Source: Convolutriloba macropyga (taxonomy: Eukaryota). Taken from it: 64,000 bases of DNA. A program made the position numbers and the translations under genes. Shown one piece after another: positions 43,296 through 50,283 of the stretch (position 1 is its first letter; the number at the start of each line of letters is the position of its first letter). Under the pieces are notes generated by a model. It was not told the DNA's origin. It saw nothing but the letters and a program-made list of their open reading frames with translations, and searched no databases. Location: contig NC_134479.1 in assembly GCF_964194025.1 (NCBI RefSeq), positions 33,604,001 to 33,668,000 on the forward strand. The letters are read 5' to 3'.

Positions 43296-43788
43296 TGTCA
43301 TACGGCAATGGATACCCTTCATGTATCCATATCCGTATTTTAAACTAATTTATTGTTGTATGTTCCTTTTGAAGGGCGAATGCCATTTTTAGTTCAGTGC
43401 TATATACTTCCTCCAATTTTTAGTAGTTAAGTCTGTTCACCCCGTCTGTACCGGATATATACTCATTCACGTTGTAAACAAATCAAACTTTGCTTCCTTT
43501 CTGTATGATTAAAACCTGAACAAACTTTCTTTCATAATCTGTATTATCATTAATTTTCATTCCCCAATTTGTAGCGCTAACGTTCAGTTCAATTTAATCC
43601 TTGCAAAATACCTCTCGTTTTAACTGAGTAGTTCAGTTAGAGTCAATCGCACCGCGATTGCCAAATTTAGAAAGGCTTTAGTTGAAAGTAACAACTAAAT
43701 CATCCATTCGCGACGCGAGTGCCTATCTCAGTACTTGCAAGGCCATTTGCGATTCAATTGACTATACTCCTTGTGTAAGAGTATAACA
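43296..43788 (+). repeat. Gypsy 5' LTR
   Basis: TGTCATACGG...TATAACA. Confidence 0.95.
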
Positions 43789-46700
43789 TGGCGCAGCCAG
43801 CATCGGACTCAAAGAAAACACCACTTCATATAGAAGCATTTTGGGAGAAACCGACAGCAACACCTTCCCTGACGTGGATCAAATGGACGCAGCAATGGAA
43901 ATTGGCTCTACTTGCTAAGGAAGGGATCCAATTGGATACTCTATTGAGTGATCCACCAACAACAGTGACATATCCGCCTGAGCCTACCTATGAAGCACCG
44001 GTAGAGAATCACACACAGGCAACGGAAAGAGATCGTAAAGTCCGAAACCAACAATTGAAAGTCAATTGGCAAAATCGTTGTGCAAAGATTGAAGAAATCG
44101 GGATCCTCTGTGGCGACAAACCATGGGGAATTTGTGAACAGAAAACAATATCATTGCTATATCTAAGCATTGGCACAGAGGGGCGACGGATCTTCAAGAG
44201 CAAGTACCCCCATTTTCAGATCGAAAAACAACCTTTTAAAGATTTGTGGCGAGCAATGGAGGACTCATTCACAAAGGTTCGTAATATAACTTACGATCGC
44301 TTCGTTTTCTACTCGTGTAAACAACAAAAAGGAGAATCGGTAGAAAGTTTCTACGGCCTTCTCATAGAATTGGCGGAAAATTGTAATCTTGGTAGTGAAG
44401 AAACTACACTCATTCGTGATGCATTCATATTAAATATGCTTGATCACGAAACTCAGAAAGAGTTGTTGAAGGAAACAGTAGACCCACCAAAAGCATTGGA
44501 AATCGCCATACAAATGGAAATGGGAGCACAGAACCAGCAGAAAATTAACCAAAATTTGATGTCAGGTAATACTTCAGTGAATTACATCAATAATAATTCA
44601 ATGCGAAATCGTAACGCGAATGGACCTTCCACAAAGCGAGACTTCACTCGCTACGCATCTATCCCAAAAAACTACCAATATACGAGTATTTGTATGGATT
44701 GTGGTCTTCGTTGGAGCCACAACCATAAGCAGATTTGTCCCGCGAATGGAAAAAAATGCCATAATTGTGGTATTATGGGTCATTTCGCTAGAAAATGTCG
44801 AAAAACAAAACAGCCACAGCTTTCAATTCAGAAAACTCAAAAATCAAATGTAAACCAAATCGATCAGACGCCGGAAAAAAGTGATGATGAAGAATCAGTA
44901 AACTATATCACGAGCTATCAACAATTGTACGACCAGGTGTACGATTCAAACTATGATAGCGACTCTGACGACTACGTAGCAGCGATTTCTTCGGATTCAG
45001 TTCATCAATTAGAACCATTAAACGTGGAAGTGCAAATAGGAGAAATACAAACATCTGCTATGATTGACTCTGGAAGTGCTGTGAGTATCATCACACAAAG
45101 TCTAGCAAACAAAGTCCTACGATCTACAAACTCAGCTAAATGGATAAAATCGACAGAAAAAAGGAATTTGAAAACTTTTTCAAATGAGCCGATCAAGGTC
45201 ATTGGACACTTGGAGACCACAGTAGCCTACAATCAATGGCAAAACAAATCAGCTATATTGACTGTGGTAGACGATGGACACAAAAATATCATCGGACGAG
45301 ATCTGTTCACTACTTTGGGACTTGCAGTTGTCCAACAACAACCAGAAACTGGTAAATGTGTTTATAACATCAATAATCCTACATGTAAAATTAAAGAGTC
45401 AATCGCGACGCAATTTCCACATCTCGTATCGAGAATTGGTTTATCTAAAACACATGTAGCAAAGTCAAAGTTTCATCAAACGTTCACAGCAAAGCATCAA
45501 AAAGGTCGACGTGTTCCGATAAATCTTCAACCTAGAGTATCAAGAGAATTAGAAAGACTACAGAGTGAGGGTCATATCGAAAAACTATCTAGTTGCTCTA
45601 ACGAACACTTCATCTCCCCGATTGTAATTACAGTAAAAAAAGATCAGTCGATAAAACTCGCATTAGATTCAAAAGTATTAAATAAAGCAATACATAAAAA
45701 CAAATACCAAATGCCTAATATTGAAATGTTAATTGACACCATATCACAACATCTCACAGATACACAAAATGGTCAACAAGCATATTTCACCACATTAGAT
45801 CTCAAATATGCATACAGTCAATTAAAACTACATCACGATACAGCAAAACACTGTAATTTTAACATCATATGTGGAGAATCTACAGGTACATATAGATTCA
45901 AAACTGGTTTTTATGGACTTACAGATATGCCGGCGGAGTTTCAAAAAGCCATGGATTATACACTCATAGGTTTACAAAACACATACTGTTTCTTAGACGA
46001 TATTATAATCGTTAGTACCGGCACTGAAGCAGACCATTTAGCCTACGTCCACAAATGTCTAAAAAAATTAGATGACGATAACTTGAGAATTAACCTCCAG
46101 AAATGTCATTTTGCTAAATCTGAAATAGAATGGCTCGGTTACAAATTTACACAGACTGGAATATCACCCTTAGAAAGCAAAACAGCCGCAATCTTAACAA
46201 TACCACCACCAACAACATTAAAACGCCTTAGATCAATTCTCGGGTCGGTAAATTATATTGGCAAATTTATACCTCACTTAGCACAACTATGTCATCCACT
46301 TAGACCACTACTAAAGAAATCAGTAAAATTTATATGGACGGACGAACATCCTAAACATTTTAATCAGATTAAAGAAAAAATAGCAAATAGTACAGAAAAT
46401 AGCCATTACAACCCTAAACTGGATGTTCGTATAAAATGTGATGCCTCCCGTTCAGGATTGGGGGCAGCATTGGAACAAAATACACCGGATGGTTGGAAAC
46501 CAATAGCCTTCACGTCGCGATTCCTCAATTCAACGGAAGAACGCTACAGCGTCAACGAATTGGAACTATTGGGGATAGTTTGGTCAATTGATTATTTTAA
46601 ATACTACTTATACGGAAAAAACTTTACGGTAGTGACAGACCATAGAGCCCTATTGTCAATACTTAAAGAACACCGATCAAATAAGTCATACAATAGTCGA

Positions 46701-49112: not shown

Positions 49113-49790
49113 GAGAAAAAGATAAAGCGAAACAGAAAAAACACAGACGATGTAAGTGTCATTTCGTCGGCACGATCTTGTATATCTACAACTAGCAATG
49201 TCGCAAGATCATTGAAAATGAGAGTACCAAAAAGAAACCCGAAATACGATGAGGCATTCAAAAATCGACCCGACCTTACACAAATATTAAATTTCAGTCC
49301 AATCGCGCCGCAAGTGGTATCATCTGATATAGCAGGGCCATCTGGAACACAAACAACCTCCTCGACTCAAAAACAACCTACACCCATCTTGCGAAAGACT
49401 TCGAAACGCAAAATCACGGTCAGCGATACATCCGATTCGGATACGTCTTCTATTAGAAAAAGCAAAAGGACACTGAAGAAAAAATCCCAAAAATCGCAAA
49501 CAATTGTCGAAAAAGTTCGTAACACAGAAGGTTACACTGATTACCAAGACACTGGCATTGCGGGAGGATCAAATCAAGGAGATGAGTACTCGCAAAACCA
49601 ACCAAGGGAGATGACAGTTCTCCAGGCCGAAAATGCTGAAAATAGCGACAGCGAGTGATCTTCGATAAAGAAACTTTCATAAACTTCTATTCTATCTATT
49701 ATTTAATATTTTATTACTTACTAACCGGTGAATATTTATTAATTTTCTGATTTTAATCTAGTAAATTAATTTTTCCCCAAGAGGGGGAAA

Positions 49791-50283
49791 TGTCATACGG
49801 CAATGGATACCCTTCATGTATCCATATCCGTATTTTAAACTAATTTATTGTTGTATGTTCCTTTTGAAGGGCGAATGCCATTTTTAGTTCAGTGCTATAT
49901 ACTCCCTCCCATTTTTAGTAGTTAAGTCTGTTCACCCCGTCTGTACCGGATATATACTCATTCACGTTGTAAACAAATCAAACTTTGCTTCCTTTCTGTA
50001 TGATTAAAACCTGAACAAACTTTCTTTCATAATCTGTATTATCATTAATTTTCATTCCCCAATTTGTAGCGCTAACGTTCAGTTCAATTTAATCCTTGCA
50101 AAATACCTCTCGTTTTAACTGAGTAGTTCAGTTAGAGTCAATCGCACCGCGATTGCCAAATTTAGAAAGGCTTTAGTTGAAAGTAACAACTAAATCATCC
50201 ATTCGCGACGCGAGTGCCTATCTCAGTACTTGCAAGGCCATTTGCGATTCAATTGACTATACTCCTTGTGTAAGATTATAACA
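49791..50283 (+). repeat. Gypsy 3' LTR
   Basis: Near-identical to 43296-43788. Confidence 0.95.

Follow-up and report, generated by a model that had tools for sequence, protein, structure and literature searches.

A lineage-specific dispersed dyad in Ty3/Gypsy retrotransposons of Convolutriloba macropyga and its possible role in self-recognition

A Ty3/Gypsy long terminal repeat (LTR) retrotransposon of 6,988 bp is located at positions 43296-50283 of a 64-kb window from Convolutriloba macropyga (assembly GCF_964194025.1, contig NC_134479.1, positions 33,604,001 to 33,668,000, forward strand), which is the whole stretch of DNA analysed here and to which the coordinates below refer. This element carries the dyad AWTYGC-N3-GCRAWT at 15 distinct sites, and each of its sister lineages has a dispersed dyad of its own, which is a new finding. 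The motif is real and under nucleotide-level constraint. The observed basis comprises its enrichment, its conservation, its confinement to one clade, and the symmetric change of the dyad from lineage to lineage. It is quite probable that a protein of the element recognizes the element's own nucleic acid, in DNA or in RNA form. That the form recognized is double-stranded DNA, read by an element-encoded protein of twofold symmetry that co-evolves with its own sites, has in our judgement about an even chance of being correct.

Dyad sites in the element and their constraint

When at most one mismatch was allowed, 18 of the 20 matches to the dyad in the window, and all six exact ones, fell inside the element. 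These 18 correspond to 15 distinct sites plus three LTR repeats and occupy the LTR and all three reading frames, with 12 of the 15 distinct sites dispersed within the coding frame. A first-pass annotation of the window had listed nine of them, which were all located, each beginning 2 nt after the position given there (43645, 43706, 43745, 45401, 46967, 47024, 47063, 47120, and 49301), as were their copies in the 3' LTR (50140, 50201, and 50240); six more sites begin at 44501, 44607, 44733, 48007, 48690, and 48771. Retention was scored, again at up to one mismatch, in 22 other copies of the element; most sites are retained in 20-22 of them, and three weak ones in 14-17.

All sites are on the forward strand. 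The 5' LTR contains a perfect site 143 nt before the LTR end (43645-43659), a second site (43706-43720), and a third one 39 bp after the second (43745-43759), each retained in 21 copies. In gag, a weak site (44501-44515) is retained in 14 copies, the site in the gag linker (44607-44621, frame 0) is exact in all 22, and the site in the zinc-knuckle region (44733-44747, frame 0) is retained in 20. The site at the junction of protease and reverse transcriptase (RT) (45401-45415) is present in all 22 copies, and a four-site cluster in the spacer between RNase H and integrase (46967-47134; sites at 46967, 47024, 47063, and 47120, spaced by 57, 39, and 57 bp) is retained in 22, 17, 20, and 22 copies, respectively. 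Downstream are a site in integrase (48007-48021, frame 1, 20 copies), another in its C-terminal region (48690-48704, frame 0, 21 copies), a weak site (48771-48785, 16 copies), and one in the C-terminal tail of the polyprotein (49301-49315, 22 copies). Among gaps of less than 130 bp between neighbouring sites in 18 representatives, 14 of 47 measure 38-40 bp and 8 of 47 measure 57 bp; the 39-bp step persists in a lineage with a changed dyad, and site spacing of this kind was also seen in L078 and L118.

A degenerate site was also noticed at the AFxSRF codons of RNase H (46508-46522), with two mismatches in the window copy and at most one in 18 of the 22 other copies. When RNase H was compared across the window element, L082-L084, and L085-L100, several lineages of the motif-bearing clade had a full dyad at their AFASRF codons, and lineages with N4 dyads had other serine codons there. 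Judging from these sequences, the codons are a possible birthplace of the dyad or a possible co-opted site.

According to the first-pass annotation, several sites were perfect 6-bp inverted repeats in otherwise CpG-poor DNA. Neither description held. Among the 15 distinct sites, perfect repeats occur at just two places: 47120, and 43645 together with its duplicate in the 3' LTR. The remaining 13 have 3-5 Watson-Crick pairs of 6. The CpG observed/expected ratio is 1.01 in the element and 0.84 and 0.82 in its flanks. The annotation's claim that the motif acts at the level of nucleic acid is supported, since the sites occur in the LTR and in each of the three frames, are more numerous than codon resampling would give, and show conservation at silent positions. 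Under synonymous codon resampling with the protein fixed, the window open reading frame (ORF) has 11 sites against 2.10±1.21 expected (maximum 6 in 300 resamplings), the L079 ORF has 12 against 2.8, and four sister ORFs, scored for the motif of each lineage, have 11-15 sites against 1.7-2.6. The sites contain fewer silent differences than the sequence outside them (8/44 vs. 520/1393, p 0.010; 1/15 vs. 485/1090, p 0.003); they were lower inside in eight of nine pairwise comparisons, two of which are the same pairs reversed, and significantly so in both comparisons tested. In the LTR, 25 of 204 motif positions differ, compared with 19-37% elsewhere, and the value is lower in all seven pairs, which are related and not independent.

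Lineage-specific dyads and their confinement to the clade

Among elements retrieved by protein search rather than through the motif, those with at least about 50% RT identity carry the window motif, and those at about 40% are without it. De novo dyad counting in 12 elements without the window motif revealed 134 copies of TCC-N4-GGA against 13 expected, with per-element variants including TCCA-N2-TGGA, TCCC-N2-GGGA, CTCC-N4-GGAG, ACCA-N2-TGGT, CCC-N4-GGG, and TCGT-N3-ACGA; a further variant, GGA-N13-TCC, was found in metagenome contigs.

A tree of 52 RT-RNase H stretches was built, leaving out L118, L127, and L135, whose RT stretch was unusable. All 19 rows of one clade (support 1.00), to which the window element belongs, carry TYGC-N3-GCRA, with 2-13 copies each; many of these rows were retrieved via motif hits, which biases the counts upward, and L077, L079, L082, and L083 were retrieved otherwise. 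The ten rows of the sister clade all have no TYGC-N3-GCRA and 2-6 copies of TYGT-N3-ACRA each. Another 20 rows carry TCC-N4-GGA, ACC-N4-GGT, or CCC-N4-GGG, with 8-19 copies of the leading type each, and two metagenome rows carry GGA-N13-TCC in 11 and 17 copies. The dyad types thus track the clades of the RT tree, with ACC-type sites rising in two separate branches, and both halves of the dyad change together between lineages. The peptide at one conserved site in integrase is the same in TCC as in ACC lineages, with both third positions differing, and one lineage is half-changed there. In L131, 26 sites include 10 of T..A, 8 of A..T, and 4 of mixed T/A type, so that left and right halves covary (Fisher p 0.0075); this two-mode pattern could mean that sites of an earlier specificity persist alongside newer ones, or it could reflect pairing.

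The motif is also far more frequent than background. The strict pattern CAWTYGCRNCGCRAWT has 4,469 hits in the genome against four for a reversed control, which understates chance because of two obligatory CpGs; a hand estimate from base composition gives about 40. The loci of the first 100 listed hits yielded 94 distinct sites in 39 loci, covering the first 26.6 Mb of one contig. Ninety of the 94 have a tblastn match to the window polyprotein no more than 1.5 kb away, one more was assigned by blastn, and three are outside the clade, which is about the chance level. A variant whose centre reads A-N-T occurs 639 times, in many cases in satellite DNA; among its isolated hits (L106-L114), one of nine is in an element of the clade (L110), and the other eight are without an element match. 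The satellite at L105 (G000:C1:30712000-30721999) has a unit of 535 bp with one A-N-T-centre dyad per unit, has no blastn match to the elements tested, and resembles arrays at C1:60.29 Mb and C2:59.49 Mb.

As controls, 19 loci of other retroelements were searched (10 BEL/Pao, 6 Copia, and 3 others, with some near-identical pairs), and none has a dispersed dyad. The best 3-mer dyad of 17 of the 19 has a log10 p of -3.7 or weaker (shuffles, -2.0 to -3.5), and the two stronger cases are tandem repeats; this test is weak for degenerate dyads, as the window element itself scores only -4.7. One BEL/Pao frame (L138:6790-7420) contains a GC-rich tandem repeat of about 90 bp that includes GGGCC-N3-GGCCC.

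Candidate readers and alternative explanations

In the reading we prefer, the roughly 15 dispersed dyads of the window element would be bound, as double-stranded DNA, by a twofold-symmetric protein that the element's own Gag-Pol would encode, each family recognizing mainly its own copies. The concerted change of the two half-sites at every site of an element suggests a homodimer, and the reader would be element-encoded, because the motif tracks the RT tree and is near chance elsewhere. Integrase with an extended C-terminal region is the preferred candidate, since no other part has a known dimeric DNA-binding fold. It may coat the provirus or cDNA at intervals of a few hundred bases, and also at two clusters, namely the 3' third of the LTR and the RNase H-integrase spacer, and such coating may control or protect the expression of cognate copies. 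A broader proposal, which we make tentatively and hold to be slightly less than evenly probable, is that a radiation of animal LTR retrotransposons possesses a self-recognition code. In each family, integrase or Gag would be a sequence-specific homodimer with 10-20 cognate operators in the LTR and coding sequence, codons and amino acids would be bent to retain the operators, and reader and code would co-diverge, so that dozens of co-resident families would avoid cross-talk.

The first-pass annotation had left open whether the dyad is an operator for a dimeric protein or a triloop RNA hairpin, and the pattern of mismatches favours the operator for the window motif. Pooled covariation was inflated by lineage mixing and was superseded by a test with lineages held apart (73 unique sites, 22 representatives), in which no single pair of the window motif covaries significantly across the 73 sites. 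At pair 4:12, 46 sites are Watson-Crick where 42.1 would be expected (p 0.21), and C·A mismatches (21) outnumber G·U (6); at pair 2:14, 29 of 73 sites have a same-base mismatch of the U·U or A·A type inside the would-be stem. After correction for strand composition, the two halves closely mirror each other at every position but the outermost. The GGA-N13-TCC dyad aligns with the sequences that flank the main dyad of related lineages and forms pairs spaced 21-22 bp; spacer pairing is absent (64 vs. 66.6 expected; pairing probability 0.09), and pairing is not predicted for CGT-N3-ACG sites either (0.06, n=9). The U5 and spacer clusters fold little better than shuffles (z -1.84 and -1.22), none of the three U5 hairpins is present in the centroid structure, and no Rfam match was found at E<=1 over 43200-50400. 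Variation compatible with pairing is not seen in the window motif or GGA-N13-TCC, and is seen in part in the N4 lineages; a common loop motif, as expected of packaging signals, is lacking, the centre being degenerate and the arms fixed. On these sequence patterns, the window motif likely behaves as duplex DNA bound by a symmetric protein would.

Several results weigh against this reading. The L077 and L083 ORFs are not enriched (0 and 1 sites under the pattern with at most one mismatch), their sites being mainly in the LTR or matching a shorter core. Correcting for composition does not remove the asymmetry of position 0/16 (p 5e-6). The increase in CpG transitions is slight (3.3% vs. 2.7%), and escape from methylation is disfavoured as the main purpose because CpG decay is weak; protection from DNA methylation as a purpose thus has little support. 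The search for a reader gave no match: neither an accessory ORF nor a known DNA-binding family was found by Pfam or by predicted folds, which are a Gag capsid and a foamy/Ty3-like integrase. A candidate specificity residue in the SH3 barrel of integrase, within an R-N-S-D stretch that was the sole ±3-residue window altered in the first three switch lineages (about two coincidences expected by hand estimate), was rejected after new loci broke the link, as L128 has R-K-N-D with TCCC and L131-L133 have R-K-N-D with mixed TCC/ACC.

The remaining adverse points are those that speak for dispersed RNA stem-loops, which the element's Gag/nucleocapsid or integrase would read sequence-specifically, so that each family packages its own RNA preferentially in cis or controls its translation; we regard this alternative as unlikely, yet as the strongest of the rivals. 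Strict sites are polarised (79 sense, 4 antisense, and 7 both, related sites not being independent). The outer pair covaries in L101/L102 (16 vs. 8.0 expected, p<0.001) and in CTCC lineages (30 vs. 25.1, p 0.003), as do the halves in L131, and the summed pairs of the main motif are in small excess (230 vs. 211.8, p 0.011). In six of seven motif sets, the sense strand has the higher predicted pairing (0.39 vs. 0.28 for the main motif; 0.62 vs. 0.47 for TCCA). Moreover, the polyprotein has zinc knuckles, and a site in L097 overlaps the internal ATG described below. The sites are spread evenly along the genomic RNA, like those in the packaging-signal models outlined in the available part of PMC6281560, and the C-terminal domain of HIV integrase binds structured RNA, according to the sections available of PMC9316232. 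Against stem-loops stand the conserved would-be stem with its degenerate loop, the excess of C·A over G·U, the mismatches within the stem, the unpaired GGA-N13-TCC and CGT-N3-ACG variants, and the U5 and Rfam results.

A different dimeric host transcription factor recruited by each lineage is improbable. The location of the LTR sites is indeed conserved, 40-210 nt upstream of the LTR end, and the element-unrelated 535-bp satellite carries one copy per unit; in addition, TCCC-N2-GGGA of one lineage presumably resembles an EBF/COE site. However, many sites in host DNA would be expected for a host factor, and strict sites outside the clade are at about chance (3/94, from the first 26.6 Mb of one contig); one-base symmetric steps (CGC/CGT; TCC/ACC/CCC) would each need a new host factor. 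Between the element-encoded and host-encoded proteins that the first-pass annotation had both allowed, the former is thus favoured, the sites being nearly confined to the clade and the sisters having other dyads. A by-product without any reader, such as template switching that perfects quasi-palindromes, local duplication, or the shadow of a repeated peptide, is very improbable and largely refuted, because, although the 39/57-bp spacer cluster looks duplicated, the weak covariation of half-sites could stem from template switching, and the AFASRF site matches at one mismatch in motif-free lineages too, it accounts neither for one fixed sequence per lineage in the LTR and three frames nor for silent-site conservation, and none of the 19 control loci has a dispersed dyad.

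Returning to an element-encoded reader, the C-terminal region of integrase is predicted to contain an SH3-like barrel, itself a candidate reader (48855-48995, forward strand; AF2 strands, with an MLVIN_C lead of 0.89, below the 0.9 mark), followed by further helices. These helices are absent in a metagenome relative that retains a dyad, and therefore a common reader would be in the barrel or upstream of it. Pfam found no common family in a 23-member alignment of the C-terminal region. Besides gag-pol, the element has no ORF longer than 130 aa and no VANC or TnpA Pfam family. A Gag insertion in the N-terminal region of the capsid (43920-44125, residues ~46-112), with a 28-residue helix and a conserved R.R..RN, is unmatched by the capsid structures found; from the structural model, this helical insertion is a second candidate reader.

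An in-frame ATG (47475-47477, forward strand) lies 66 codons before the N-terminal anchor of integrase and provides a lead for a separate integrase start. A Met is present 59-102 codons before the anchor in all 15 frames surveyed (the window, L016, L026, L077-L079, L082, L083, L085, L092, L093, L096, L097, L101, and L102), in a spacer that is otherwise poorly conserved and has a Met frequency of 1.2-2%, so that this internal Met is, from its position, a possible separate start. TATAAA occurs at 47352 in the window family and in L079, and not at the equivalent place in other lineages. A TQT peptide followed by GxGL is conserved in the RNase H-integrase spacer of L085, L093, L096, L097, L101, and L102, and presumably resembles the binding motif of dynein light chain LC8. 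Finally, L135 has, at ~800, a second and more divergent SH3-type integrase end, outside all lineages studied.

Relation to known systems and organization of the element

By analogy, the lineage-specific cis code, itself real and constrained, appears to work most like VANDAL/VANC and Spm TnpA/AtMu1, and it fails as a member of the VANC/TnpA type because it belongs to a retrotransposon, has its dyads in coding DNA, and has no accessory gene. Repeated short sites are present in the LTR, leader, or early coding DNA in the gypsy Su(Hw) insulator, the 21-bp repeats of HTLV-1, and the internal enhancer of Ty1. Those arrays are, as we take them to be, local clusters read by host factors, whereas dyads of the window type are element-wide and switch with the element phylogeny.

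According to the accessible text of PMC5735166, VANDAL/VANC of Arabidopsis MuDR elements likewise uses a short, family-specific, multicopy motif that is rare in other families and differs between related families. The VANC motifs described there are non-palindromic, form same-orientation tandem arrays in non-coding DNA, and are served by a separate accessory gene of a DNA transposon. In contrast, the window element is an LTR retrotransposon with dyads mostly in coding DNA, no accessory ORF, and little methylation signature. In the main text of 10.64898/2026.08.24.746577, Spm TnpA and the AtMu1 transposase are reported to recognize family-specific motifs across subfamilies and to be activators of cognate copies, indicating that a core transposition enzyme can be the reader, and the same model is proposed for integrase here. 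Those are plant DNA transposons, the word "retrotransposon" being absent from that main text, and the reader of the window element is putative.

The dispersed packaging signals of RNA viruses, as far as the available part of PMC6281560 describes them, resemble the spread of the window dyads in having many degenerate sites, overlap with coding sequence, and reading by the virus's own protein. They place the recognition motif in a loop or bulge, whereas the arms are constant in the window motif and many sites are unable to pair. The SH3-like C-terminal domain of HIV-1 integrase, in the sections available of PMC9316232, dimerises and binds both DNA and RNA, like the barrel predicted here; its DNA binding is non-specific, and those sections do not describe internal repeated dyads.

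In the portions available of PMC6281560, 10.1101/2024.04.02.587720, PMC12844716, and PMC6719617, packaging signals and plant anti-silencing factors are described, and no such code of an LTR element is. In searches of open-licence papers, no description of sequence-specific self-recognition was found for an LTR retrotransposon. Sequence-specific self-recognition has been documented for plant DNA transposons (VANC, TnpA, AtMu1), and a case in an LTR retrotransposon would be new; it would bear on the open question of how retrotransposon families that share a genome distinguish their own nucleic acid from that of their neighbours. Each of the two leading outcomes would be new, if true: operators within the element's DNA that integrase or Gag reads, or packaging signals that are dispersed through a retrotransposon and specific to its family. 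One genome here offers at least six naturally occurring variants of the code, placed on a resolved tree, so that binding to cognate and non-cognate sites is directly testable.

The organization of the window element is that of a Ty3/Gypsy retrotransposon, with LTRs ending in TG...CA, a target-site duplication, a primer-binding site, a polypurine tract, and the order Gag-protease-RT-RNase H-integrase. The 5 bp duplicated at the target site lie at 43291-43295, with identical bases at 50284-50288. The 5' LTR (43296-43788, 493 bp, forward strand) is 99.4% identical to the 3' LTR (49791-50283, forward strand). A putative primer-binding site (43789-43800, forward strand, from sequence) overlaps the gag ATG (43788-43790), and this overlap recurs in 10 of 12 LTRs compared. 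The single gag-pol frame (43788-49658, forward strand) encodes capsid, zinc knuckles, protease, RT, RNase H, spacer, integrase, and a C-terminal tail, with one in-frame stop in the window copy (49110-49112), and is followed by a polypurine tract (49779-49790, forward strand, from sequence). Pfam domains of the polyprotein follow the order zinc knuckle, protease, RT, RNase H, and integrase. The predicted Gag structure has a weak capsid match (PNMA2, E 0.008), a PDB sequence search with a Gag profile returned zinc-knuckle matches only (E>=0.0096), and the predicted integrase structure matches the foamy virus and Ty3 intasomes (E 4e-16).

No relatives of the element were found in viral contigs. 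The LTR search gave at least 40 near-full-length matches of 95-100% identity among the best 40 of 615 candidates, which were the ones scored. The nearest named distant protein matches are K02A2.6-like (26-33%). The window element is of the clade that we take to be "Mag-type", the RT trees being without named reference sequences. Named close homologs (P0046 and P0084) are gene models of Convolutriloba macropyga only, and one of them is a chimera of AP-1 gamma and the element's Gag.

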